A DNA stretch of 64,000 nucleotides from a virus. Position 1 is the stretch's first letter, and every line of letters begins with the position of its first letter. The notes under the pieces are model-generated. The model ran no database searches. It saw only the letters and a list, made by a program, of their open reading frames with translations, and was not told the DNA's origin. A program made the position numbers and the translations under genes. The stretch covers positions 32,001 to 96,000 of IMG/VR virus record IMGVR_UViG_3300042503_001836; one strand, written 5' to 3'. Of the stretch, positions 23,307-52,300 are shown piece by piece.

Positions 23307-23531
23307 CTATGGTTGTGTTTGCTGTTCTAACGCTTGTTTCATAACCTGAAATACTTTCTTGATTCTGGAATAGCTTGCTGTTTCATAGCCAGAATCAATC
23401 CAAATGCGGACTCGTTTATAGCTAAAGCCTGTCTCACTTGCTAATTGTCTTTTAGACCATCCCAACTGCAAGCGCATCAATTCCAGTGTTTCATGCAACT
23501 TGTTAATGTCAACCTGTCTTAAGTCTAACAT
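23307..23531 (-). CDS. XRE/Cro-like HTH regulator
   Basis: MRLQLGWSKRQLASETGFSYKRVRIWI. Confidence 0.75.
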   Translation of the reverse strand: MLDLRQVDINKLHETLELMRLQLGWSKRQLASETGFSYKRVRIWIDSGYETASYSRIKKVFQVMKQALEQQTQP

Positions 23532-23854
23532 AAAAAAAGTCCTAAAAAGTCCACTATCTAAAATATATCAGAAAACGTGCTTTCTTTATAAAAATAAATA
23601 AAACAGCACCATTACACTATAATTTCCTATCTGTCAATCAGTAATTTTTTGAAAAACTCTATTTTTGCACGATACTTCAAATCTTTATACAGTAATAGTT
23701 TTAATGCCAGACGGTAGGAATAAACAAAGGTATCTGCACTATAGTATACAGATATACAGCAATATAAAAAATACTTAAATAAATAGCTGAAACTATTGAT
23801 ATATAAAGCTTTTCACTTTTAATGTTTTTTAGTAAGTGATGTTATTAACTGTAG

Positions 23855-23918
23855 GGTGATCCAAAAGTTCTAAAAACGATAGCTTATATATTATGATTTT
23901 CTCAACTTTTGGATCACC
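23855..23918. repeat. 15-bp perfect inverted repeat with 34-bp spacer
   Basis: GGTGATCCAAAAGTT (23855-23869) / AACTTTTGGATCACC (23904-23918). Confidence 0.85.
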
Positions 23919-24199
23919 TTAGCTTTTTTTGCTATTTTTCTCAGTAAATTATAAGTAATCCGTATTAAAAATAACTTTAGTAAAAAACATATTAAAAACT
24001 ATATTTTAACTCCTAGAATACTTATATAAAGCCCACTCTGTTATTACAAGTCGGCGCGGAAATTCCAATTAGCTAACTATAAACACTTAATTAGGTAATT
24101 TATAAAACAGTAAGCAGTTAGTATAGTAATTATGTACTAAAGTAAAAATTGACAGCACAAATGTTTGAGCATTTTTAGTTAAAAAAACTTTTTAATGCC

Positions 24200-25115
24200 C
24201 GGTTTTCTATTTAATTTTTTAAGCCGTAATAAACCCTATGGATAACTGACATCCTATCCACTAGATGTCAAGGGCTATAGCTGGCTGTTAACCTACAGCC
24301 AGAGTTACTTTAGTTTCTTCAAATTAATCAGGTTGCGAGCCGTCATTCTTTTTAGTCCCCTCAGATAAATCTGTTTTACCCACAGATGGGAGTCAAATTA
24401 CCTTTTAACCAATAGGCTTGTCTGTTTTTGTTTAGGATTCGCGGTCTTCAACATACTTCATCCAAGACGCTAAGTGTCGTTTAGCTGCGTCCTATTTACT
24501 TGATCAGCTAGGTTACTGATATGTGGGTGTTTTTACATCTTGCTCTGATGGTTTTTGCGCTTATACAGTCGCACTTTCGATACCCAATAGAATTTGCTAA
24601 CATCTACACCGCCGCACCTGGAGTCATTTATTTCTAAAAGTAGTTCCCATTGTCGTTTCAATCCAACTCCCTATTAAGAGAGTATTTATACATTCCCCTT
24701 GTCTAGTTAATACCTAATGTTCATGGAAATCGCGCTCAAATATGGATCTAGTTTTTTGGTTCAATCCCTTCAGTAAAGTCTCACTACCTTACTAAATTTT
24801 TGATATCCCCTCAAGTCCGCCCAATTATATTGTCCCCATTTCAGGGTATCGTCATGGCCAACGCAATCTGCACTACTTTTTTATTGATTCACTTTTAATC
24901 CTTACAGGATTTAGGTCTCAACTAGAATCCGCCACGCGCACGCATACGGACTAGAAGCAATTTCCAATTAAAAACTAAATGAGAGTCTTTAATTTTCAAG
25001 CCGGGTAATGACTTCACCGACTCATCTTGCGTTCCTTACTGGTCTAGGGCTTTTATAATAAACGCTGAGGTGTGTTACAACGCTCGATTGTTTCGCCTAT
25101 CAGATTTATTCGATT
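24200..25115 (-). ncRNA. large structured non-coding RNA, GOLLD-like
   Basis: ORF-free, own consensus promoter, many hairpins; ordered motifs (GUCAUUACCCG, UUACUGAAGGGAUUGA..AAAAAACUA, CAGGUGC, GUAAAACAGAUUUAUC) resemble GOLLD as recalled; 3' end approximate. Confidence 0.65.
24655..24691 (-). CRISPR. solitary 37-nt CRISPR-like repeat inside the large RNA
   Basis: GTATAAATACTCTCTTAATAGGGAGTTGGATTGAAAC: 7-bp hairpin plus ATTGAAAC end. Confidence 0.7.
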
Positions 25116-25121
25116 AAATAT

Positions 25122-25150
25122 AATATAACACGGGATAAAATAAATGTCAA
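25122..25150 (-). promoter_or_regulatory. promoter of the large ncRNA
   Basis: TTGACA-17 bp-TATATT with TG extended -10 and no ORF downstream. Confidence 0.75.
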
Positions 25151-25163
25151 CCCCATATAAAAT

Positions 25164-25194
25164 AAAAAAACCTAGTAATTTTGTACTAGGTTTG
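25164..25194 (-). terminator. intrinsic terminator after the solitary repeat unit
   Basis: AAACCTAGTA-CAAAAT-TACTAGGTTT followed by a T run. Confidence 0.75.
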
Positions 25195-25267
25195 AGTTCT
25201 TATTACTTAGAATTAATTAAAACTAGGGGCTTTTCTGTTGCGGTTTCTGATATCTTAGCTGGTTTAT

Positions 25268-25304
25268 GTTTCAATCCAACTCCCTATCAAGGGAGTATTT
25301 ATAC
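25268..25304 (-). CRISPR. solitary 37-nt CRISPR-like repeat followed by a spacer-like segment
   Basis: GTATAAATACTCCCTTGATAGGGAGTTGGATTGAAAC; 35/37 identical to the 24655 copy. Confidence 0.7.
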
Positions 25305-25353
25305 CATAAGCTTGTGTTTTATGGTTTCTAAATTCATTTTAACACAAATGTGC

Positions 25354-25623
25354 TTACTTGACTTCAAATACATAACCAGATTCAGTTACTTTGACTAATC
25401 TCAATACAGTATCAGTCCCGTCTTTTTTCAGGCTACCTTTCCACGCTAGGCAACCAAAAGATGTTTTATCTCGAATGTCTTCCGCTTCCTCTAAAAGCTG
25501 TTTGCATCTAGTATTATACTTTTTCCAAACATCCTCTATTTTGCAGGATGTAAACTTAGCTACAATTTTGTTATTAGCAGCTAAGATATGGTATTCTGTT
25601 TTTTCTGTATTTCTTAAAGTCAT
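25354..25623 (-). CDS. hypothetical protein, co-transcribed with the solitary repeat
   Basis: 89 aa, AAGGAG RBS, promoter at 25736-25764. Confidence 0.65.
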   Translation of the reverse strand: MTLRNTEKTEYHILAANNKIVAKFTSCKIEDVWKKYNTRCKQLLEEAEDIRDKTSFGCLAWKGSLKKDGTDTVLRLVKVTESGYVFEVK

Positions 25624-25735
25624 CTTATTCTCCTTATTTTTTTTTAACTTGACACAACTCGGGATAATGCCTAATTTTAAGAGTCACCTATTTAAGGCGA
25701 TGTTTGGTTTACCTTTGTTTTTTAACCACACTAAT

Positions 25736-25764
25736 AATATAACAGCATTTAAAATTAATGTCAA
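25736..25764 (-). promoter_or_regulatory. sigma70-type phage promoter
   Basis: TTGACA-17 bp-TATATT. Confidence 0.75.
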
Positions 25765-25970
25765 GCATTTTATAAAACTATTTTAGAAGTATAAAATATT
25801 ATACATAAGTTATAAATATTTAAATGTTATACATAATACACTCGGATCAAGACTTATACAAAATCGGGATATCTCACAATCCAGAAAACAAAACCATTCT
25901 AGGTAAATCAGAATAGTTTAGGCTGTGTCCTGAAACCTTAGAATGGCTAGATGAATTTTTGAACAAACAC

Positions 25971-26603
25971 TTAACTTCTAATTCTGTTTACTGAAGGAAA
26001 CCCACCAAATCTTAAAGTATGCCCGTGATATTGTTTACACGCGTCTAAATCTTTTCTACAGGCTCTATTAGCTGGTGTAGTAGGATTGCCAAAGATGTCA
26101 AAATTAAGATTAATAGGTGCTTGACAATCTTGATCGCCTAATTGCCACTGGCATCTTTTAGAATATACCCTAGCTGGTAGTTTCTTTCTTTCTAATGAGT
26201 AGGGAGTTAGGGAAAATGTAAATTGATTTTGATATTCTCCAGTGTACTGATTAATCTTTAAATTTAATTCATAGAATTGTGTAGAGTCAGCCGTAGGTTT
26301 ATCGTCTAAAAACATAGGCTGCGTACGTTTTACGTTTACGTCCGCACCGATAACAAAATAATTATCAATTACATCTCCAACTAAACCAGATATATCAGAA
26401 ACTATTAAGGATGCACGTGCTTCTACACTTTCACCTGATTTGCTAAAACTACTAATTTTACAAGGAAAACCTTGATAAATAGTGTTACTAAAACTTACAG
26501 TTCCATAGTTACAGATTTTAATATCAAAATCTTGGTTTCTGATATTAATTAAATCTATAAATATTTCGGTGTCTAGCTGTTGGGCATTGGATATTAAACT
26601 CAT
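25971..26603 (-). CDS. lambda gpL-like minor tail protein
   Basis: Start likely MSLISNAQQLD; LPARVYSKRCQW...DC...C.K.LDAC...RFGGFP Cys cluster. Confidence 0.85.
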   Translation of the reverse strand: MSLISNAQQLDTEIFIDLINIRNQDFDIKICNYGTVSFSNTIYQGFPCKISSFSKSGESVEARASLIVSDISGLVGDVIDNYFVIGADVNVKRTQPMFLDDKPTADSTQFYELNLKINQYTGEYQNQFTFSLTPYSLERKKLPARVYSKRCQWQLGDQDCQAPINLNFDIFGNPTTPANRACRKDLDACKQYHGHTLRFGGFPSVNRIRS

Positions 26604-37321: not shown

Positions 37322-40300
37322 TTATCTGTTGTAAGGATTACCACGATTAATAGAACCGCCTACTCTCATTTCCCGACGAATACCATCTGATACCATCGCT
37401 TGTACAGCCTGTGACAGTCTGTAGGTATCTACTTCAGAATCACTGCCAACCTCAACACTTACAGGAACATTTATAGTTGTCGTATTGCCAATCTTAGATG
37501 CCATACTACCGTTACCACCTGCACCTACAACACCACCATTAGCAAACCCAGCCACACCGCTTTGCAACTTATTCCAAATAGCGGTTTCTTTGTGGTTAAG
37601 AACCCGTTCACCTTCAGAAGCAACTATTAAATGAGGCTTACGTCCAGTAATAGATCGCTCCTTATTCATTACCCCAACTATCCCGCCATCAGCAAACATT
37701 GGTAAAGTAGCAAAACCAAAATCTGTAGGAATAGCATCAAATAATCCAGGCGTAGGATTAAATCCCATAGAATTGGCATTAAACACAGAACCAGAGAGAA
37801 TATCAAAAGTGCCACCAAGAAGACTGCTAAAAATATCACCACCCGCGTCCATTGCTGTGTTTGCCACAGTTTGACTACTTAATGTTAAAGCAGCTTGCAT
37901 CAACATTTGCCCAGCTTGGTTTAATGTCATACCTGCCAGGTTGAGTCCATTAGCACCAACACTCAAATCAGCTAAACCTTTAACAGCATTTATACCATCA
38001 GTTGGTTTTTCATCTTTCTTTTTATTTCCAAACAATCCCTCAGTCCAACCAAATAGAGCATCAGTCATGCGTTTAGATGCCATATCAGCTAGAGGATCAA
38101 GGAAACCTTTCATAATAGAGTTAAATAGATCACTTACGGACTCGCCAAACCCTTTTGTACTTAATAGGAACTCCTTAAACCCGCCCCTAAAGCTACTTGT
38201 GACACCTTTAACCACAGTTCCTAACTCAGAGAATTGTAGTTTAATAGCGTCTAGTTTTGCTTCATTAGTCAGCTTGAGATTTTCCCGTAAAGTATTAATC
38301 TGTTCATTAGTTAACTTATTAGCTTCCGTAGCTTCAGCGTTCTTTCTAATAAAATCATCTAACTGAAGCGTAGCCTTAGCAAAATCCATCTGTTGATTAT
38401 TAATAGCCAATTGCTTATCAATCTTTTCAGCACGGAAATCAAGACCATAGGCTTTGAGTAGAGAACTTCTAGACTCTTGTACACCTTTAAATGAATCCTG
38501 GATAAATTGCACTCTTTCTAATAATCTAGAAGGAATATTTGCATTTTCAGCAATACGATCATTTTTTTGTTTTAACTCAATATTTTGTTTATTGCGTTCA
38601 AATTCTTCCTTAACGTAGTCCCTTCTTTTCTTAGCTTCTTCAGAAGAAATAGACCGACTATTTTCTTCATTTGTAATAGCATTAAGTTTTTCTTTATATT
38701 CATTCTCGGTATTTAATAAAGCTAGGTTTGCTTCTAAATCAGCAGTTCTAGCAGACCTTGGATCAAGTGGGTTTAATTGCTGTAATAGTTTACGCTGTTC
38801 AACTTGTTTTTGGAGTAAACTAATTCGGAGTTTTTCAGTTTGTAATGTAACTCCTGTTCGTCTAGATATTTCCTCTCTATTAAATTGTTCTACTCTTGCT
38901 TCAAGTATTTTAGGAGTATTTTGATTTAATTCAGCTAATGCTTTTTTAGCTTGTATATTCTGAAGTACAGTAGTTTTAAAGACCTCGTTATTTGTATTAA
39001 TTGCGTTAAGTGCCTGTTCAGGACTGTCTGGAAATTTCTCTAAAGATGCAACAAAAGCAGCTTTTAGTAATTTTTCATTGTCAATTACACCTTGAGTATC
39101 ACGAACTGTTTTTTCTAACGCTTCTCTCTTTTTCTCTAATGAACGAATAAGCTCTTGATAGCCAATCAAGAATCGTTCAACATTACTCATGTTGGGAGAC
39201 AAGCCCTCTCTTATAGTTTTCCAAATATCTAAATCAGTATCTTTCATACTGCTTTGAATTTGAAACATAGATTCAGTAGTTTGTCTAAGTAAACGATATA
39301 ACCCTAACAATTGCTGTGTTCTGTCTGTTAATAGCTGGGACTCAGTATTCATAGAGTTGGCTGCATTTTGTCCATCGGCTGTATTGAATTTAAGATTTGT
39401 TGCATCTGTAACATTTGATTGCATTTCGTCAGGAGTAAGAGTCCCGCCAGTATTAACTAGTTGATTCAACCTATTAAGATTTTCTTGATAAGTCTTTAAG
39501 AAATTACCATGTTGTCCTTGGGGTGTTCCTTGTCCTTTATATGCACTTCTATTCTTACCCGACTGGATACTGGCATAATGTAGTGCAAGTTTATTTAATA
39601 CAGATGTATCTACTTGACCTTTCAAAACTTGATCTAAAACACCTCTAGATTTTAAGGAATGAATAAAATACAAATCTTGCATACCCGGGCTAAAGCTTGG
39701 TTGATCCTGACCTTGATAGTCTGTCAACTTAAACATATCCGGCATGGCATTTTTACCAAACTGTTTTTTAGCCGCTTGGATAGATGCGTTAAAGTTCATC
39801 ATCTGATAGCGTCCGGCTGCAGTGCTACTGTTGTTAATCCACTTAATCCAAGTTGGTTTCCTACCAGTTCCCACATAGGGATGTTTAGAGAAATCAGTAA
39901 CATTCTCACCACCAATCGTTAGACCATAGCCAAAGTTCCTAGTATTTTTTCTAAAATCAGAACCCTCAGCATTAGCCACAGCATTAGCCAAAGCTAAAAT
40001 ATACTTATTCTTACGCAGTTCATAAAGTTGTTTACCAAGTGGGGTTAGTTTTGCATACTCTTCAGGGCTTAAGTCATTACCACCTTGAGATATTCCTGAA
40101 GAATTTTTAATACCTATCGTACCAGGTACAGGCGGTAATATGGGAACGGGTTGTCTTTTTGGCAACGGCTTAACCTGTGATGCGACATTCTTAGCTATTT
40201 CTACCGCACCAACAGCTTGATCAAAGACAAAACTCTTAATACCCGTACTCTTTAATGCTTGCTTAAATTTATTAAATTCTGCTTCGTTAGCAAATACAAT

Positions 40301-43300
40301 ACAACCACTAGAGCCAGGATCAACAAGTCTGTCCTTATCAATGTGGAAACCAATAGCGGTTCGTTCTGTTTTAAAATCAGGTTCAAGTCTTATAAACTCA
40401 TTCCCCATTTTAGCCTTATTGCCGCTAGGAGTAGTTTTACCAAGTCTATAACTACCAAACTCTACAGGTTGTTTAGACCCTGCTTTTGTTTCACCTGCAC
40501 CACCAAATATTTGAGTATCCGCCTTACCTGAATTAACAATAAATCTATCAACTATCTTTCCTTGTTTAATGACGGCTAACTGGATTTTTTCTAATCCAAA
40601 TTCATCTTTTTGTCCCAATCGCTGCATCCTGATTACAGATTCACCCTTGGACTGACTGGCAGGAGTAACAGTATTAGCTTTAGTTTTAGCAGTTGCCGGA
40701 GGTTGGGAAGCGATCGCACCATAATCACCCTTAGCTAAATTAGCAAGGAACACTTGAGGGTTAATATAGCGTCCGTTTGCCTTAACCCCAAAATCTAGAT
40801 GATGTCCTAATACATTACCCAGTTTTTGCCCAGCTTGTACTTGTACAGGTTTGCTCAAGTCACCAAGAGTATTTTTGATACTATTAAGTGCTAAGTGTCC
40901 ATACTCTATAGTTATCTTTGTACCCGATGGTAATATACTATTAACAAACACAGCAGCATCTTGTCCGCCCCATTTTTGCAATTTAGCTACACCTGCAAGA
41001 CTAGCAATAACTTCTGCACCAGCACCACCCTTAACACGACTGTCAAAATCAACCTTATTGTGTAAACGTCCTGGACGTTGACCCATGACACTTTGTCCAA
41101 AGGTGGGTTTATAGTTAATCAAATCTTGGATAGTCGTATTTTTAATAGGTGATGTAAATTGATTTGCTACTGTAGGTATAACCGTTGGTGCTGGTGTTGC
41201 TGATGCTGCATCCTGTGTTGTAGGTGGCGTTATAGCTGACGATACAGCCGATGTTATACCACCAAACACACGACCTACAGTGTTTAGTAAATTACCTGCC
41301 CAGTCAGAAGAGTTATTTTCATTAGTGACTTGATTTAACTTACCTAAAGTTACATCTAACTTAGTTCCTACGCCCGTCACAGTATCACCAAGTCCCTTAA
41401 AGGCATCGTTAAGACCACTAGTAGCTATTACTGCGTCTTGTCCTAAAGACTTCACAACCTCTTGCACATCAGAGTTTATACCAACAACACTACCCTGAAC
41501 TGTTCTAAGTTGATCGTCAAACTCTTTAATTTTATCCTCATCAAAAGGAACTATCTTACCTGGTAGACTTCGTTGTAATTCACTAGCACGAAGCTTAATG
41601 TCATCAATATTATTTTGATAATCAATTTCCTGTTTTTTAGCATCTAACTGACGTTTTTCCATCTCCGTAGTTTGAGAGATAATATTAATAAGCCCCTCAA
41701 TAAATTGAGTGTAAATGTTATCGCCAGCACCTATCAAAGCTTCTCTAAGCTTGTTTTGCATCCTAGATCCTTCTAGGGTTTTTTGTGCTTTTTGGAACTC
41801 TATGCTTACCGCTTGCGCTTCCCTAACAGAAGCTCTATAGTATTCAGCTACTTGTTTAGTCTGGTCAATCAAAGCCTGTTTCATATCACGCTGGGCTTTG
41901 GCCATTTCTTGTGAGTTTTGAGCTAATGCCTCTCTATCTTTAGTAATATCGCCTCTTAACTTATCAAATTCCGCTTGTGCTTCATTTAAGTTAGTACCAC
42001 CAGCCGCAATAACTTGGCTTATCTTGTCTAAGGCAGCTTGATCACTATTAATCTTTTCAGTTAATAAAGTGCGTTGGCTGCTTAAATCAGCTAGTTGAAT
42101 ATTTGATAATTCCGGTGCTATTTGTTGCGCTGTTCCCGATGATGCGTAAATTTTAGCCTGACTTAAATTAGACTTAATCCTATTAGCAGATGTAGCACGC
42201 TCAAATCTAGTATTTGCATCCTTAACAGCATTGGTAGCTTGGGTATATAAAGCCTCTTCCATAGGTCGGACATCAAACGGTTTTGCCCCAGCAATCATGT
42301 TTTTAAGCTGGTCAATTCGTGCTTGAGTCTTTTGGACAGCAGCAGGAATTAAATTTCCTGTAACACCTTCAACCGCGCCTAGCTGTAACTTTTGCTTATA
42401 TTCTTCTTCCTGTTTAAGCATCCGTTCCAACATAGGCAACGGTGATCCAAAGCTATTAACTAGATCCTCACGTTTTTTGTAAAGTTGTTGAATTAATTGC
42501 TTAACCTCACCTTGTTCCTTACGAACCTTATCACTCGGTAACGCCTTGTTTAGTTCTACACTTCGTTTAGTTGCTGCCTCTAGTTGTTTGTCAATATTTT
42601 TAATCTCTTTAAAATCAAACGCACGTTGTATAGAGGTTTTGATAATGATCTCCTGATTTTTCCTTTGATTTTCTAATGCTTGTAATTCCTCTTTAGCTTT
42701 TTCATATTCTTCTTTAATTTTTTTATCCCGTCTATTAAAGAAAGTAGGTACAGTCAACTTTTCAAATTCAGCTTTCTTTTGCGGAATTTTTTTATCAAGA
42801 TCCTCCATAATTTTTCTATTTTCTAGACGATCACCTACTTCAAACTCAGAGGATTTGATAGCCAAAGTATTCCGCATCTGTTTAGACTGATTTTCTAAGT
42901 TTTTAAAATCAGCACTGTTTTGTATATCTTTAATTTCTTGAGGACTAGCACCTCTAGCTTTTGCATCGGCTAATACAGCTAATCTTCTATTGTTGTTATC
43001 CTCAATTTGTCTGTTAAGATTTGATATATCTTTGTTAGCATTAAATTTTTGTTGCTGTTCTATTGTCAGTGGTTTGATATCAGCTACAAAGTCACTAGGT
43101 TTACCAGTAAATCCTTGACTAGACGCAAACTCTTTTAAGTTTTGGATATTTTTTTCTTGATCCTCAAAATATTTGATAACCTGTTGTTGCGCGTTAGTTA
43201 ATCGGGCGTTTGGATCTTCTGTATCAAAATAGCTTTTTATTCCTTTGTTTTCTGGTTTGTTAAGAAACTCTTTTTGTTTGTCTGTTAGTTTAGGTGCAAA

Positions 43301-46300
43301 TAAGTCAAGAGCCTTAGTGGCTAATGTTATAGCAGCAATGAAAGCAACAACCGCAGTAAGAATAATAGTAAGAGGGTTAGCAAAAAGAGGTGCTAAAAGC
43401 ATAGCTAGTTTACCTATAAGAGGTACTGCCATGAGTGGCCCGGATGCACCTGAAGCAATCAAGGCAGCATTGGAAGCCATAGCGGTAGACGCAGCCACAG
43501 AAGCCGCAGTAGTAGCTGAAGCTAAACCTACATTAGCAGCATACGCAGCACCAGCACCAGCCACACCTAAAGCACCTACACCAAGAAAATCCATTACTGG
43601 ATTAGCTTGACCTTTATTTCTTGCCTTGATTGCATCATCCCATTTAAAGTCACCACCACCCCAGAAGCTTCTAATGTCAAGCTGTACGCCTTTAGAAGGT
43701 AATGTGTCAGCTAGTGATCCGCCTAACTTTTTAACATTGTTAGTTGCTTTATCAAAGGAGTCCGCCGTTTTTTGAACATTGGCTCTAATCTCAGTCAAAC
43801 CGTTATTTAGTTCCTTAGTTGCTTCCTTGAGTGAATCACCCATAGGATTGCTAAAGTCACCTTTAGAGAACATCAAGATAGCAAAAGCGACCCCTATATG
43901 AGTTAATGCTTTTCCTAAGAATCCTAATGAAGCCGCAAACAGTTTATTTCTTGCAATTCCGGCATCCATAGCTGCATTAGCCGCACCCATTGAAGTTAGC
44001 ATTAATTCACTAGCAGCTTTCATTGTAGTCATGAAGCCTATAAAAGCCTTTGCTGAACTACTGAACATTCCTGCGGCTGCACCAACTACACTCGTGATCA
44101 TTGGCCAAAGAGCCATTTTTACTAAAGCCGTAGCTTGTTCAAACATGAACACCATTGCTAGTAGTTCTACAACTCCTGGAGGAATGACTTTAAAAAACCC
44201 ACTAAATACACCTTTAAGCCCGTCAATTATATTACCCGCTTGTTCAGCACCTTGTACTAAGCTGCCAAACATAGATGAAAAGCTAACATTACCATCACTC
44301 ATAGACCGCATAACAGAATCTATAGTGCTAAAAAGTGCTACAACAAGATTACCTACACCACTATTCATGTTAGAAATTAGGTCTTTTTCTGCACCTAACC
44401 AGTTGTCAGCAACATCCGCAGTAATGCCAACAATTAAAGGCATCATGTTAGTAGCCATAACTGAAAAAGTTGCCATTAATAGGTGTTGCAAAGATCCAAG
44501 TAAAGTAACCAAGGGTTTAAACTTAGTCATAATTACTGTTAACCCTATTGCTATGGTTGCAGCAAAACCAATGGCAAAAGATTGACCTAAAGGTATTAAT
44601 GCTCCAAGACTCTTACTGAACAAAGATAAGCCATCAGCAAAAGTGCTAACAAAGAAACCTAGAGTTCCGCCTAACTTATCAGTAAATATTGTGGTTATTT
44701 CAAAACCCACATTACCTAGTTTATTTAATGCAACAACTAGCCCACCCGCTTGACTAGCAGCCGAATTACCATAATCTTGTTTGAGTACCTTAGCAACTTT
44801 AGGTAAGATATCCTGAGATAACACACTACCAGATGAGATGAGAGCGTTCATTTCTGGTACTGACACACCCATAGCCTTAGCAAATACACCCATAGCTGGC
44901 GGGAATTTTTCGCCTAATTGCTGTCTTAATTCTTCCATTGACAGCTTACCTTTAGCCAGAATTTGAGTATAAGCCATGAAGACTAAACTTGCATCTTGAC
45001 CAGTAATACCTAACGCGCTTAGAGATGCTGTTATACCTTCAAACAAATCTCTGACACCTTGTCCTTCCATCTTACTATCTCTAGCTGCAATAGCTAATTG
45101 AGAATAAGAATTAGCCGCTACTTCAGAAGGAACATTCATTTTATTAGCAATGTCTTTGGCATACTTAAATTCTGCCTCGCCACCTGCCTTAGAGCCGCCT
45201 AAGAAAGTAAACCTTCTTTGTAATACTTCTACTCGCTGAATACCGTCCATTAATCTAGCGACATGGGGTGAAACCATACTAACAGCCGCACCTATACCAC
45301 CAATAATCGGAGCTAGAGGTAAGAATAAGGGACTTAAGGAAGCAAACAAAGATGTTACAGGTGCTAAAGTTGCAGCAATAGACCCCATAAATTGCAACAC
45401 ATTCGGGAAAGTTGCGTCAGCTTCTTTTGGATCGCTAAACAGAACTTTTTTCACACCAGATCCCATCTGGTTGTACATTTCCTTAAATTGATCCTGGGTA
45501 GCTACAGTACCCCGACTCATGCGCTTAAATATGACTCCAACAGCATCACCAAAGTTAGCTTGACCTAGTGCTTTTTTAGCATTGTATTCCAGGTCGTCTT
45601 TAGCGTTAGCAAGGTTACGTACAGAGTCTTTAAAACCTTCGGCTATAGATTTACCCATATCAAAGCCTTTTTCCTTAAACTTAGCTTGTAAGCCAGTTAA
45701 GGATGCCATCAAACCCGCGGTAGCCGTATCTAAAAGTTTAGGATCGATGTTTTTAAGTTGCTGTGAAGACATACCAGCTTTTCTCAAGCCTTCTAGTAAT
45801 AAGCCTTTCATAGCTTCTTGATCATTACCAGCATAGGCTTCGGTAAGTCTGCCAACAAAACCAGTAGAACGTGGAGCATTAACCAAACTTTGACGGAAAG
45901 TATCTAACCCACCAGAATCTCGCATCTGTTGGAAAGTTTTAAAAGCTACGCCACGCTCACTTAAAACCTTTGCTGTAAGTGAGTCTAATTTACCTTGTGC
46001 TTTATCATCACCTAAAACTGCTCTAGAACGTTCAATATCACCCATTGCTTGCATAAGTTTACGCTCATTATTGGTTGCCGCAATAGGATTATTTAGAATG
46101 TTTTGGCGTGCTGCGTCTAACTGTGCATCAGTCATAGCATCACGGGTAGTTTTATTAACTCCACGTCTGCGTAACGCTTGTTTTGTCATAGCATCTAGCA
46201 CTTGTGGAGATATAGGACTGAACTGCGATACCCCTTCTAAAGCCTTTTCTACTTTGTTTCTTTGAGTACCAAGAGAGTTAATTGTATTTACTATTGTTCC

Positions 46301-49300
46301 TGATTGTTGTTTTAGTTTATTCCCTGTTAATCCTTGTATAACAGAAGTAGGAATCATAGGAATATTGAGATTTTCTAAAACACTGTCTATGGCAGTATTA
46401 CCTAAATTCTCAATTAATTGTTGACTCGCTTGAGTACCTTTAGCATTACCTAATCCTGCTTTTTTGCGATTAGCCGATGTTTGTTCTTGTAAAACTTGTT
46501 CAACAGTAGGAGCTTGGTTTCTAGGATTTGATCTTGATGATTGATCCAAACCTAAGATCCCACCAAAAGTATTCATGAACATTCCAAACATACCTAGTCC
46601 CATTGATGCAAGACCACCACCACCAACAATTGATGGTAAAGGGAACATGCTAGGGACAGGATTCATCATCTGGGATATGCCACCTAGTATCCCGTGTGTT
46701 TTTTGTCCAGATAACGAAGATAAATCTATTCTGGTAACAGAACTTAGTAATTTTGTTAAGAAACCACCGGGTTTTAAGACATCATTATTAAGTAAGTTCT
46801 TAATAATTGCGTTACCCAAGCCTAAAGTTAAGCCACCAAGTACAGGTATCAGTGGTTTTAGCATGGGTACAAGTTGCAATGTCTTGGGTATGAATTTCAT
46901 AAACCAAGGCATTATAGAGCGAGTTTGAGACAACAGACCTTGATAAAGTGGCTGTTTTAAAGTATCAGCAAGAGAGAATAACGCCGCGTTTACAGCATTA
47001 CGCATCACCTGGCCTAATGAAGCATAACCAGAAAGTGTGCTTTGACGGACACTATCACTAACAGCAGTAAATAAATTAGTAATTAAGTCTTTACCCAGAC
47101 TCAAATACTGACTCATCATTGTTGGTGGTACTGGAGGTATGGGCGGTGTAGGGGGTGTGGGTGGTGATGGCGGAGATGGCGGTGTGGGTGGTGATGGGGG
47201 TACTGGAGGTACTGGAGGTACAGGAGGTACTGGAGGTACAGGTCTAGGAGGAACAGGAGGTACAGGAGGTCTAGGAGGAACAGGAGGTCTAGGAGGTACA
47301 GGAGGTACAGGTCTAGGAGCAGTAGTCCAAGGATCTGGAATTTGTGAATAACTATCAAATAACCGGGACATATTACCAGCCATTAATGCATTTAAGTTAA
47401 TACGTATGGGTGGGTAGGGCTGTGTAGCTTGTGTTCTAGTTGATAAGTGAGGTCTTGTTTGCTGAGTTTGCTGAACTGTACTAGCTAAATTAGTTCTTTG
47501 CTGTCCTAAGTTTCTATTTGTTGCAGGCACATTTTCAGTATTCTGTGCTTCATAGTCTTCAGGTAGAGAATTAACAGCTCGCTTAGACTGTTGTAATATA
47601 CTTGATATCTGTGGTTTAAAATAATTAGATAAGCCAAGGTATGCCGCTATTGATTTACCTTCTATTACACCTTCTGCTAAATCTTGGGCAACATTAAGAT
47701 CCTTTGATTTGTTATACTTACCTTCTTTGTAACCTTTAGCAATTGTTTGATGATATGCGTCTATATTAGCCGCATAGTTAGCTACAAGAGCTTTTTGAGA
47801 TTCTGTGGCTGTCTTACTTTCATTAACTGTTTTAACCATTAAATCAGCAATTCTCTTGTTAGCTAAGACTAAAGCAGCCACAGCACCATCTTCAAAACCC
47901 TCACCAAAATCTAGACCCATTTCTAGCATAACTTTTGATGGGGATGCAATCCCAAATATTCTTTTAATCGTAGATAATATACCTGTAGCAAACTTAGTAA
48001 CTATCCCTAAAACGCCACCATTTGCAGACAAGAATCCTTGTCCAAAAGAAGTTATTAAATTAATACCAATGTCTTTTAAACTTCCGCCTTTGCTAAATGC
48101 AGATTTGGCACTGTTAAATAAATTGCCTAAAATAGTATCACTGCCAAAGTCTTTTTTAACACCTGATAATAGATTAGATAGAGGGTTTGCAGGTTGATCA
48201 AACTCTTCTAGATAAGATTTAATTTCTGGGTGTTGTGTAAACGCATTATAGTCAGCATTTGAGTTAAAAGCAGTGCGTGCTTTTTCTTGTAACTGTTTAA
48301 GTTTTTCAGATGAAACCGTGTGTGATTGAATGTAAGGTTTTCCACCAATAATGGAATGTGCCTTATCAGATAATTGAAATTCTTTTTGTTGTGGATGACC
48401 ACTCAATGCAAAAAGAGTATTATTATCATTGTCTACTTTTCCATAACCCTTGTACTTGTCTAGATACTTCAAGCCCATGTTTTGAGCTAACTTAGGATGT
48501 TTCAATAAGAAATTATTTAATTTGGTAGCAATACCGAAGGGTGTACTAAACCCAGTCATTAAATTTGTATCGTGCGTCCAGTCATAGACATCGCTTATCT
48601 GTAACCCACCCTCTTTATTGCGTCCATAATTAAAACCGCCTAAAGTGTAATGTAAATTTTTAAATCCGGGTATTTGACTAACTTCATTGCCTACAGTACC
48701 ACTACCCACTTCCCAATTTGAAGGAATTTTAGTTGTTTTATTTTTTGAAGCAAAGTCAAGCATAGACCTGTACATTACTGCTAGTTCTGCCTCTCTAGCA
48801 GTACGCCCCTGCAATTTATGAACATCAGTATTTCCTTGATAATAAGCACCTAAATGTTTAACTGGTTCTGATAGTTTATTTCCTAGTATGCCAGTATTTC
48901 CCAGTGCAACCATAGATGCGCCAAGTATTGATCCAAAAGTTGTCTTTTTCTCATGTTTATTGCTTTGCTCATAAACACCCTTAGTAGCTTTAGCACTACC
49001 ATCAACGGCATTTTCAACAATGGAATCATATGTATTAATGTTCTCAGAATTAAATAAATCTAATTCTTTAATTCCCGTATCCACAGCTTTCGCTAATAAC
49101 TGACTAGCACCTGATACATCAACAACACCTTGTTTAATACCAATAGCCAGACCTGACGCAATCATTACACCCAAGGCAATCATCACCTTTGAAGGTGAAC
49201 TAATGCCCATGTTTTGTTTAATCTGATTTTGAATAGCGTCACCAGTAGTATTTATAGCTTTAGAAGATAAGGCAACCGTGCTTAATATACCTTGGCTCAA

Positions 49301-52300
49301 ACCTTCGTTAGTCTGTTTACCGATCTTAATGAAATTATTTAAGGGTGAGTGAAGTTTTGCACCTAGTGACCCCACAACATTAGCTATTCCTTGAGGTGCG
49401 CCATAATCTGCAACACTAGAAGCTATAGCATCTTTCACTGGTAAACCCTGACCAACTTTAGATTTAGATTTTCTATATAAATCTAAAGGTACAGACAAAG
49501 TATCAACAACAGCATCAACACCATAACCAGCAGTTGCAAAATTAGAATTTGCACCAGTACCTAAACCTGTAGGTACAACCTTCATGACACTGCTAATGGC
49601 TCTTACTATTTCACTCTTACTGAGTTTAAGGTCTTTCAAATTGTCATTTAAAACACTCTTAAACGTAGACATATAATCAAGGGAAGTATCAGCTTGTAAC
49701 TTCGCCTTAGTTTGTCCATGAGCTTGAGTAACAGCTTTAGTAATAGCACTATTTCTTAATAATGCGGTCATACCAGCTTGAGCAGCATCAACGGCACTGA
49801 CAGTCATCGGATTAGCACCAAGACCTAACGCGCCAGCTTTAGCAATATTTATAGTGTGATCAAAAGCCGCTCTAGGTGTAGTCAAAGTTTTATCAGCAAC
49901 AATGCTATTTACAAAATCTTTAGCAGACCCACCTACAGACTGAAATAAAGTTTCACTAGGGTTTGCTGCATGCCGTTCTCCAACCTTACCTAGTATTTTC
50001 AATCCCGTATCCGTAGCACTTAGACCAGCACTTCCATACGTGCTAATTGATGTAAGTCCAGGTATTACACTGGTTGCACCAAGAGCTGGATCAGCAAAGG
50101 TTTTTACTGCACCTACAATATCAGTTACAGTTGATACCATTTGTCTTGCACCTTGAGCAACCTTGCTATTACCTTTTTGCATTCCCAAAAACAAACCCGA
50201 AGTTATCATCAGACCCATCTCAAACATCAACCAAGATGGTGACTGGATCTGCATTTTGGTTTGGACTACTTTAATAAAGTCATCGAGCATAACACGGGCA
50301 GCATTGGACACCCCACCTGCACCATGTTTAATCCCGTTTTGCAAACCTTTAGGAATTTCTACTCCATGCTGTTGTGCTAACTCTGTATAACCCTTTAATT
50401 GCTGATCAAATAGTTTTTTGTCAGCGAGGTTTAACTTGCCTTCTAAATGTCCCGCGTTTTTTCTATTATTTTCTAGAGGTGATTTAGCTCTGCCGTGAAT
50501 CCCGCTTAATTCACTATTAATATCTTTGCTAAAGCCAGCATCCTCACCCATTTTTACATATTTATCAACAGTAGCAACGGCTTCTTTAGAGCGACTAATA
50601 AAAGTAACAACTTCAGCTCTTGCTGATTTAAGTTCTTCATGCGTACCTACTGCGGTAGCTTGTTTAACTTTCGCCTGTATTCTCTTATATTCATCTGCAA
50701 AATATTTTTTAATAGATGTTAATGCTTTATCAATCTCATCTAAGGAAGTCTGAGCATATTTTTTTGTATTAGCTGTTTTATCAGAAGAAACAGGCGGTAA
50801 AGGTATTAATTTATTTTCGGCTGCCGTAGCATCTTTATAGCCTTGGGATATATCAATATTTTTAACTATTTCAGATTGAATTGTTTGGAAAAGTGGCTTA
50901 ATCTGCTCAGGAATATTAACAGGAATTGGTTCTAATTCCCGTTTTTTAGCTGGTGGGGGTAATGGTACTTTATTTTCCTTAGCTGGTGGCTGCTTAGGTA
51001 AAGGTGCTGAATCTTTCCAAGGATCTGAAATAACTTCAGAAACAAAAGGTTTACTGGTTTTAGATTTTGATACAGCTTGAGATTCAGATTTCATACCTAT
51101 GGAGGCATCACTCAAAGCTTTAGCAGCATTTTTTAAATCGGCTGCGGCTTCTTTAAGTACATCTGAAGAAGATTTAACAACAGGTGTAACAGGCTTATTT
51201 AATACACCTTTACTTAAAAAATCTTTAATGATAGGTGCTGTATTTGGTAATAATTTATCAAAGGCAATCTCCACAACTTTTTTAGATTCAGAAGCCAAAC
51301 CTTGACCTATAAACGTACTTGTAGAATCTTTTTTACCACTTTCAGCCGCATCAAAGAACCAGCCTACAGCATTTTGAACACCAGATGATGAGTTTTGAGT
51401 AACTGAACTGGCCGATTTTCTAACTTGTCTAATAGTCGCTAATTTAGCCCTTTGAGCAATACTCTCAACACTAATATTAATACTGTCAGAAAATGCCGTA
51501 TTTATTTCTGACACTGTACTAGAAATAACGCTGGGATTATCTTTAGCTATATTTTCTTTAAATGATTTAACTCCAGACTTACTACTTTTTTTAGTCTTAA
51601 TTCCTACACCAAAAGAATTTAAAAAACTATCTGCCGCCTTTTCACCAACATCACTCATATCAATGTTAGCGTTTTTCTTAATAGATTGGCGCATCCCTTT
51701 AGATATTTCTGAACCAAAACCCATTGAGATTCCTTCAAGAAACCCAGTCAATAAATCTTTACCTGGTTTTAAAATAATACTAACTGCTTGGTCTATTTGA
51801 CTATTACCCGTAATTTCTTTAATACCTCCAAACATTGTTTTTAATTCTTCCACTACTTCTTGAGTGTTAGCATTAACAACACTGTCACTAGATTTTACGC
51901 CTTTAGATATTGCATCAATAAAAGCATTTTCAATACTGCTAGAAACACCACTGATAGCACTAAGAATACCTTTTTCAATTCCTTCTGCTATCGATTGAGA
52001 AACTTCTTGCTTAGAAGAATCTGTAATCTTAATATCTAGATTTTCTTCTGTTTCAATTATGTATCGCTTACTAGATAAATTACCCAATCTTTGTTCTAAT
52101 TCATCTAATTTAGTAACATCAGTATTAACAGCTATGGGGTTGCTATCAAAATATTTATTAACTTCCTTAAGGTGCTGTACTTTAGTATGTAAATGTTTAT
52201 TTAAATCAACAAGTTGATCGTCGTCAACATTAACAACAATCGGATTATTATTAAAATATTTATTAACTTCTTTAAGGTGTTGTACTTTAAGATTTAGATG

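Follow-up and report, generated by a model that had tools for sequence, protein, structure and literature searches.

What is a single CRISPR repeat doing in the middle of a phage RNA? The question arises at positions 24200–25304 of a 64,000-nucleotide (nt) stretch of DNA, hereafter the window, which comprises bases 32001–96000 of the 118,553-bp IMG/VR virus record IMGVR_UViG_3300042503_001836 (estimated completeness 93%). An earlier reading of this DNA (the original prediction) had proposed that a GOLLD-like giant RNA carries the repeat as internal cargo, next to a second, solitary copy. Here we find that the 37-nt element most probably belongs to a type I-C system encoded by the phage itself, and the explanation that we prefer, at a probability of roughly 45%, is that the phage expresses solitary units of its own type I-C repeat. 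Positions below are those of the window unless marked as genome positions.

Within the window there are two and only two occurrences of the 37-nt pattern, at 24655–24691 and 25268–25304, both on the minus strand as had been claimed, and there are none in 100 dinucleotide-preserving shuffles. Read on that strand, it consists of a 7-bp stem (ACUC[C/U]CU / AGGGAGU) with a 4-nt loop and a tail ending in UUGGAUUGAAAC, which bears out the predicted hairpin and CRISPR-type 3′ end; folding predictions for both transcripts recover the hairpin in its context (pair probabilities 0.56–0.84). In the whole record, the repeat is found 55 times at up to 3 mismatches and 56 times at up to 4 substitutions, the latter count comprising 31 copies in array A1 (genome 14365–16574, minus strand, loop TAAT, UAAU in RNA), 22 copies in array A2 (genome 22337–23888, plus strand, loop TGAT, UGAU in RNA) and three solitary copies. 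The two arrays read outward on either side of a cas module and together hold 51 spacers (genome 14365–23888 for the whole system). Within the module, cas3 (genome 20019–22097; PADLOC Cas3c, E 3.4e-175) is divergent from cas5c (genome 19322–19963; PADLOC Cas5c, E 1.6e-46), cas8c (genome 17682–19337; PF09709, E 9.4e-61) and cas7c (genome 16803–17663; PF05107, E 1.6e-87). The A1 and A2 leaders are homologous to each other, and in both a strong promoter lies 62 nt ahead of the first repeat. Arrays with unique spacers beside cas3, cas5c, cas8c and cas7c but no cas6 are the arrangement of a type I-C locus, and the module agrees with it, no separate search for cas6 having been made. Because the same record holds these four genes and two arrays of the identical repeat, we assign the element, in identity and anatomy, to the phage's own type I-C system with high confidence, and the claim that it is a genuine CRISPR repeat stands.

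The biochemistry of type I-C systems suggests how such an element would be handled. Cas5d leaves an 11-nt 5′ tag on the CRISPR RNA (crRNA) (PMC5965381), and the present repeat has the same layout, a 7-bp stem followed by the 11-nt tail UGGAUUGAAAC. Given this established biochemistry, cleavage by a Cas5-type enzyme 11 nt from the repeat 3′ end would be the expected chemistry (PMC5965381). The phage Cas5c aligns with solved pre-crRNA processing endonucleases at E 3.6e-32. Neither Cas1 nor Cas2 was detected in the record by searches that found them in 7 and 6 of 14 control genomes, respectively, and the module, judged from its gene content, appears to be interference-only. It lies outside the window, ~33 kb upstream of the site and 33–40 kb from both window copies. 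The remark that no cas gene is visible therefore holds for the window but not for the phage record, with its type I-C module and 53 arrayed repeats; likewise, a host Cas partner had been assumed, whereas cognate Cas proteins were found only in the phage itself. No targets were found for the spacers in the phage's own genome, the relatives compared, the phage collection or plasmids, and a weak A-rich 23/27 spacer match in two relatives (G002 and G006) was judged to be due to chance. Spacers 17 and 18 of array A2 are neighbouring 41-nt sequences with identical match lists and are apparently duplicates. Among 2.9 million viral contigs, a 28-mer of the repeat was found in only one other contig, that of a relative.

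The three solitary copies occupy different settings. Solitary repeat 1 (25268–25304, minus strand) is identical to the A2 repeat and lies 49 nt past the stop codon of an 89-amino-acid (aa) open reading frame (ORF; 25354–25623, minus strand) and 74 nt ahead of an intrinsic terminator-like hairpin with a T-run (25168–25193, minus strand). ORF and repeat share one transcription unit, which is driven by promoter P1 (25736–25764, minus strand; TTGACA-17-TATATT, TG-extended, 11/12) and closed by the terminator. Solitary repeat 2 (24655–24691, minus strand) is the A1 variant with one additional stem C>U. Solitary repeat 3 (genome 7160–7196, minus strand, outside the window) follows a strong promoter (genome 7325–7297) by 101 nt; it lies in the 5′ leader of an early replication-gene operon, whose first small ORF has its ribosome-binding site ~40 nt further on, and the operon includes a downstream clamp-loader gene (DNA polymerase III gamma/tau-like). 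The two window copies thus differ at 2 bases, an A/G in the loop and the stem C>U, which leaves a G-U pair. These differences had been described correctly and read as a sign of selection on the RNA, a reading that is not supported: the loop base is a fixed difference between A1 and A2, so each window copy matches a different array, and one private transition is not enough to demonstrate such selection.

Both window copies have the hallmarks of solitary repeat units, being full length and intergenic and having no neighbour of their kind within 100 bp. They are separated from the next repeat by 613 nt, with no degenerate copy (up to 4 substitutions) nearby, and the copies lie outside ORFs of at least 40 aa with two exceptions: a mechanical 42-aa TTG frame (24533–24661) overlaps repeat 2 by its first 7 nt, and an 84-aa frame on the opposite strand (25144–25398, plus strand) spans repeat 1. 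The solitary repeats are not collapsed copies of A1 and A2, an idea that we rejected because their flanking sequences show no homology to the leaders of these arrays. For solitary repeats 1 and 3, duplication of the flanks was not significant, and an empty site for solitary repeat 3 was not found in the relatives.

The 118.5-kb genome contains 22 sigma-70-type sites scoring at least 11/12, five of which precede repeat-bearing transcripts (those of both array leaders and of solitary repeats 1, 2 and 3). The three solitary copies are all in the sense orientation, 101, 431 and 432 nt past the −10 element, and with a further copy in a contig of a relative (L013), four of four are in sense and no more than 450 nt from a strong promoter. 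Were ORF-free positions and strands drawn at random, they would fall within 450–500 nt downstream of such a promoter in ~9% of cases, so that three of three corresponds to p ~6e-4, for a promoter-distance threshold that was picked after seeing the data. Because all three copies are in sense and near strong promoters at this p value, their placement appears to be non-random. This counts against a competing explanation, that the solitary repeats are neutral by-products: single repeats copied from the arrays by illegitimate recombination, template switching or repair, which survive only where insertions are tolerated (untranslated regions and the insertion- and deletion-prone centre of the RNA) and whose cleavage by Cas5c would be incidental. 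The pairing kept in the hairpin of the one mutated copy also counts against it, weakly. P1 and the promoter of the RNA, P2, are 81% identical over 31 nt (25734–25764 versus 25120–25150) and lie 614 nt apart. The spacing of the two repeats is 613 nt, with 460 nt from P1 to repeat 1 and 459 nt from P2 to repeat 2; the interiors of the two promoter-to-repeat segments are not homologous (global z 0.8, no tblastn match).

On the explanation that we prefer, the solitary repeats would act through processing. During infection, Cas5c (the phage's own and possibly the related type I-C enzyme of a Nostocales host) would bind the base of the hairpin and the 3′ overhang and cut 11 nt before the end of the repeat. 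Two pieces of the non-coding RNA would result: the 5′ one would keep the repeat hairpin at its end, and the 3′ one, which would begin with the crRNA 5′ handle, could seed binding of Cas5c and Cas7c. In this way the solitary repeats could sequester Cas proteins of type I-C or divert them, as is the case for RNA anti-CRISPRs (Racrs). The abundant RNA would be a mere strong carrier transcript that turns the repeat into a strongly expressed decoy, aimed perhaps at the type I-C systems of Nostocales hosts or of co-infecting relatives. We propose such a Racr-like function only tentatively, at somewhat less than even odds, and a neutral origin is nearly as likely.

The transcript in question lies downstream of the P1 unit. 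Promoter P2 (25122–25150, minus strand; TTGACA-17-TATATT, TG-extended, 11/12) is 96% conserved in the relative L013, and the region that it drives holds no ORF longer than 42 aa. Part of the locus is present in 20 of the 23 listed sequencing runs, which come from 15 studies and are labelled lake water, freshwater, plankton, aquatic or metagenome. Four of these 20 runs were compared over 24100–25800, three of RNA from three studies (X15, X16 and X17) and one of DNA (X5), as assembled contigs rather than reads; runs X2–X4 and X6–X14 (shares 0.47–0.71) were left out as evidence. The RNA-run contigs cover only 24307–25090 (X15), 24313–25057 (X16) and 24282–25087 (X17), starting ~20–55 nt past the expected start site, and the X5 DNA contig spans 24100 to 25210. 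The flanks at 24100–24281 and 25126–25800, including the 89-aa ORF, had no cover in X15–X17, which is a weak hint of the transcript ends. At the downstream boundary, the RNA-run contigs stop at an 8-bp GC-rich hairpin (24281–24302, minus strand) that has no U-run on the minus strand and is a probable 3′ end or stability hairpin. Because promoter P2, the lack of coding capacity and the restricted RNA-run cover coincide, we accept the region as a non-coding RNA (24282–25115, minus strand), ~0.83 kb here and ~0.78 kb without the repeat-bearing insertion described below, that is present in lake metatranscriptome assemblies. An RNA library of 3.08 million letters yielded a 769-nt contig with a word depth of 8.4, which suggests that the RNA was abundant in that sample, contig depth being a poor measure of expression.

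What had been called a ~0.9-kb structured RNA is thus upheld as a transcript but not as a structured one: its folding energy is unremarkable, the z-score being −1.57 over its full length (+0.39 on the opposite strand), with −1.11 in the 5′ half and −0.67 in the 3′ half. Homologues were scarce. At the DNA level, none was found in 50,697 phage records, a 28-mer of the RNA had 0 matches in the viral contigs and a 24-mer of the leader matched only the one relative contig. Compared with the records of five relatives, the RNA matched only in its promoter/leader and repeat, in G001, and the ORF-free gaps of relatives showed no blastn or nhmmer similarity to it; two metagenome contigs with a 20-mer match had no BLAST similarity to the window and were set aside as chance. 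Among the RNA variants compared, only near-identical ones were seen. In X5, another lake sample, the terminator–P2–RNA cassette is 98–99% identical to that of the window, and the DNA upstream of the terminator (beyond 25210) is unlike the window; such a different neighbourhood is what would be expected of a moron-like module. At position 24281, the base of the 3′ hairpin, X5 carries a 13-nt insertion, and the loose end of the X17 contig reads the same letters.

Could this RNA belong to the GOLLD family? GOLLD RNAs have a universally conserved 3′ region with extensive covarying structure, are located in phages or prophages, often (and thus not decisively) beside tRNA genes, and form a homo-oligomeric nanocage. 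A cage-forming member with a linker that evolution has made to present a CRISPR repeat as cargo would be large, phage-borne, promoter-driven and present in lake samples, with a variable centre, as the RNA here is. Members of the family have been retrieved by cmsearch at a cutoff of 1e-5, and their linkers can hold tRNAs (Kretsch et al., 10.1101/2024.12.08.627333). In our searches against Rfam, a check that the original prediction had called for, none of 4227 Rfam models matched anywhere in the window at the gathering threshold, and at E ≤ 10 neither 23500–26000 nor the 896-nt RNA region (24230–25125) returned GOLLD. The only matches that did appear, tail matches of CRISPR-DR9 (15.5 bits) and one to UPD-PKc (17.2 bits), are noise. 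The 64-kb window contains no tRNA gene, the folding energy is ordinary and, as shown next, the same RNA lacks the repeat in four other data sets. GOLLD membership is thus largely refuted, and a cage that displays the repeat is the least probable of the explanations considered here. The headline of a GOLLD–CRISPR chimera does not hold; the element is a stray solitary repeat in an unclassified phage RNA.

The repeat within the RNA differs between strains. It is part of a 49-nt segment (24645–24693, minus strand) composed of a T, the 37-nt repeat and GACAATGGGAA, which is present in the window and absent in all four runs compared: X15, X16, X17 and X5 join 24643/24644 directly to 24693/24694. In X5, the repeat-less allele stands in a 2016-nt contig at depth 81.5, and since X5 is DNA, the repeat-less form exists as DNA. 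The repeat-bearing chimera is therefore one allele of the RNA gene. Whether the 49 nt were gained or lost is judged from these four data sets and not from a tree. The last 11 nt of the segment duplicate the upstream flank GACAAGGGGAA at 10 of 11 positions, with a 5-nt exact microhomology at the joint. The segment belongs to a variable centre of the RNA (24464–24693, minus strand) that also includes a deletion of 108 nt in X17 (24465–24572) and, in X15, the replacement of 36 nt (24557–24592) by 70 others, with X16 contigs breaking at the same two places in loose ends. By comparison, the 5′ ~400 nt and 3′ ~180 nt show only a few base differences among the variants. The proposal that the repeat sits in a variable linker thus has merit as to its position in a central, indel-prone part, but not as to built-in cargo.

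Several of these observations favour the neutral explanation: the repeat is missing from the RNA gene of every other run compared, other large rearrangements occurred at the same place, the solitary copies are identical or nearly so to the variant of one array, which suggests recent copying, and the 11-nt duplication with its microhomology fits a repair event. A further point in its favour is that the sequences downstream of the repeats had no target that could be found. Set against the placement near promoters, they leave a neutral origin quite possible, although we hold it for somewhat less probable than expressed, functional units.

The same junction bears on whether the assembly can be trusted. 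Repeats confuse assemblers, and the L013 contig ends right past its repeat, so a repeat mis-assembled into the RNA gene of a metagenomic contig has to be considered. The junction, however, is a clean 11-nt duplication with no array spacer sequence, and a separate Logan assembly (X1) holds 0.99 of the sampled 31-mers of 24100–25800, X1 being possibly the source sample and hence not independent. We regard an artefact as very improbable.

Comparison of the two alleles also raises the idea that the solitary repeats produce single-repeat guides. Here the downstream RNA, once cleaved and bearing the 5′ handle, would load Cascade as a crRNA-like guide, serving either as a regulator (of the CreA/CreR type or as a mini-array) or as a weapon against competitor phages with the uninterrupted allele. 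Of the first 35 nt past solitary repeat 2, 34 agree with the repeat-less allele, the repeat flanks the phage's own allele in the way it flanks array spacers, and the one mismatch, at position 6, is of a kind commonly tolerated by type I effectors (10.1101/2023.03.03.530964). Regulatory cr-like RNAs from standalone repeats are moreover widespread, according to the same source. Against this, the matching site in the repeat-less allele is preceded by the triplet CTA and not by the TTC reported for type I-C (PMC8406640), and there is no second repeat-like element 30–40 nt downstream. No seed plus protospacer-adjacent motif was matched anywhere in the phage genome, cas promoters included, and an 8-nt seed (position 6 free) with extended identity had no match in it outside the loci themselves. 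Guides of this kind are therefore an unlikely explanation. Less likely still is a bolder combination in which single repeats are mobile in this phage lineage, copied into strongly transcribed non-coding DNA with a short target duplication, so that each becomes a self-protected one-repeat guide matching the uninterrupted allele of competitors. Were it true, a solitary repeat would be a natural CRISPR-based allele-targeting or homing element, or would make an abundant phage RNA into a Cas-loading scaffold.

Relatives of the phage show the same variability as the runs. A search with tail protein L found 11 loci, of which only L013 shares the region, and L013 was also the only contig recovered with the 89-aa ORF; the 534-aa protein, PolA and Cas7c as queries yielded no relatives sharing it. 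L013 retains the 89-aa ORF (92%) and the terminator with P2 (96%). At L013:8148–8304, a repeat lies ~30 nt into the P2 transcript and the contig ends 11 nt later, so that this copy could be an array or a second, independent solitary insertion. Together with the runs, these comparisons indicate that solitary repeats vary between strains of this phage lineage.

Several points weigh against a Racr-like role. The chief objection is that a decoy would also blunt the phage's own Cascade, which uses the same repeat. The absence of solitary repeat 2 from the RNA gene in the other four runs is matched by the absence of solitary repeat 1 from L013, and a complete 95-kb relative (G002; tail protein L 89% identical) has neither repeat nor RNA; an element specific to a strain may well be neutral. 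The RNA contigs are no rigorous guide to the strand, the ends or the abundance of the transcript, and the repeat allele is in none of them. The 89-aa ORF that precedes solitary repeat 1 has no Pfam or PHROG family and only 6 close, unnamed homologues; its AlphaFold2 model (mean predicted local distance difference test score 60) is too poor for use. A 29-mer of the repeat had 0 matches in one genome each of 185,579 prokaryote species, so no host array with it was found among them, and an 18-mer gave 6 single, non-arrayed matches in unrelated taxa.

The record itself is that of a 118.5-kb tailed phage of lake plankton. Proteins encoded in the window include lambda-like tail proteins (tail L and tip attachment protein J), a head protease/major head protein and the large terminase (TerL). 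For TerL, the nearest isolated phage is Aphanizomenon phage vB_AphaS-CL131 (47% identity over 69% of the protein), and other phage proteins have only distant kinship to any isolate. The nearest named cellular proteins to Cas7c are from Dolichospermum (70%), Sphaerospermopsis (69%, or 74% for a partial protein), Chlorogloeopsis (65%) and Planktothrix (57%), and unnamed metagenomic proteins reach 93% identity. Because of these Cas7c and TerL affinities and the freshwater labels of the runs, the host is probably a Nostocales cyanobacterium, in agreement with the cyanobacterial lineage that had been predicted. Two of the unnamed Cas7c proteins, P0007 (93% identity, 35.8-kb contig) and P0010 (74%, 113-kb contig), suggest that their contigs are further phage relatives with the same type I-C module. 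Elsewhere in the window, one 5050-aa ORF (37322–52474, minus strand) lies between the tail and head modules. The AT-rich gap that separates the RNA from two helix-turn-helix genes (74 aa and 534 aa) holds an operator-like inverted repeat of 30 nt (23852–23921; core GGTGATCCAAAAGTT / AACTTTTGGATCACC, 10-nt spacer, 80% complementary).

The value of the locus lies in a natural before-and-after pair rather than in a new RNA–CRISPR machine: lake populations hold the same RNA gene with and without the repeat, and the junction is visible. With this pair, one can test directly how a solitary repeat is born and what it does to a type I-C system. Also of note are a type I-C system that is apparently interference-only and holds 51 spacers, in what is probably a Nostocales phage, and an unclassified ~0.8-kb RNA in the metatranscriptomes of several studies, both of relevance to bloom-forming cyanobacteria and the viruses that infect them.

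There are precedents for CRISPR systems borne by phages, for solitary repeat units and for cr-like RNAs (PMC6293099, PMC10651486, 10.1101/2023.03.03.530964). Our search, which covered one library of papers and no supplementary data, found no literature that links GOLLD or ROOL RNAs with CRISPR repeats. The accessible parts of PMC10651486 and 10.1101/2024.12.08.627333 do not describe a solitary repeat inside a large non-coding RNA or on an element with its own matching cas genes, and those of PMC10651486 do not describe the origin of solitary repeat units. Solitary repeat units from IMG/VR are catalogued in Supplementary Data 1 and 2 of PMC10651486, where this contig or relatives of it might be found. 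Compared with the GOLLD RNAs discussed above, the present RNA is likewise phage-borne, ~0.8 kb long, non-coding and found in lake samples, with an indel-prone centre between better-conserved flanks, but it is not similar to the Rfam model, has no tRNA genes beside it and shows no sign of an ornate structure or of multimerization.

Racrs are among the closest known systems (Camara-Wilpert et al. 2023, PMC10651486). As in Racrs, a full-length repeat stands outside arrays in a phage, in an intergenic position downstream of a promoter, and the type is I-C with Cas5 processing; phage solitary repeat units are typically promoter-proximal, and RacrIC1, which inhibits type I-C, lies 11 nt after acrIC5 on one bicistronic RNA, just as solitary repeat 1 follows a small ORF in one transcription unit. 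The differences are that Racrs are found on elements with no cas genes, whereas this phage record encodes the cognate cas3, cas5c, cas8c and cas7c together with two long arrays, that one unit lies in the middle of a 0.8-kb RNA rather than in a small RNA, and that no host array with the repeat was found. The crRNA-like regulatory RNAs and mini-arrays of Shmakov et al. 2023 (10.1101/2023.03.03.530964) are also built on standalone repeats, yield cr-like RNAs for type I effectors and have phage copies near anti-CRISPR genes; unlike the CreA/CreR type, the copies here lie ~9–41 kb from the cas genes, with no second repeat-like arm and no partial match to the cas promoters of the phage. Virus-borne mini-CRISPR arrays (Medvedeva et al. 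2019, PMC6858448) similarly combine viral repeats with spacers apparently aimed at other viruses, but they have 1–2 spacers and rely on host Cas, whereas this phage has long arrays, its own effector genes and solitary repeats. Aphanizomenon phage vB_AphaS-CL131 (PMC6293099), which has no DNA similarity to the window in the RNA region, is likewise a siphovirus of ~110–120 kb with its own CRISPR array; its putative type V-U2 (TnpB-like) locus has 10 spacers and a 36-nt repeat, whereas the phage described here carries a type I-C system with 51 spacers.

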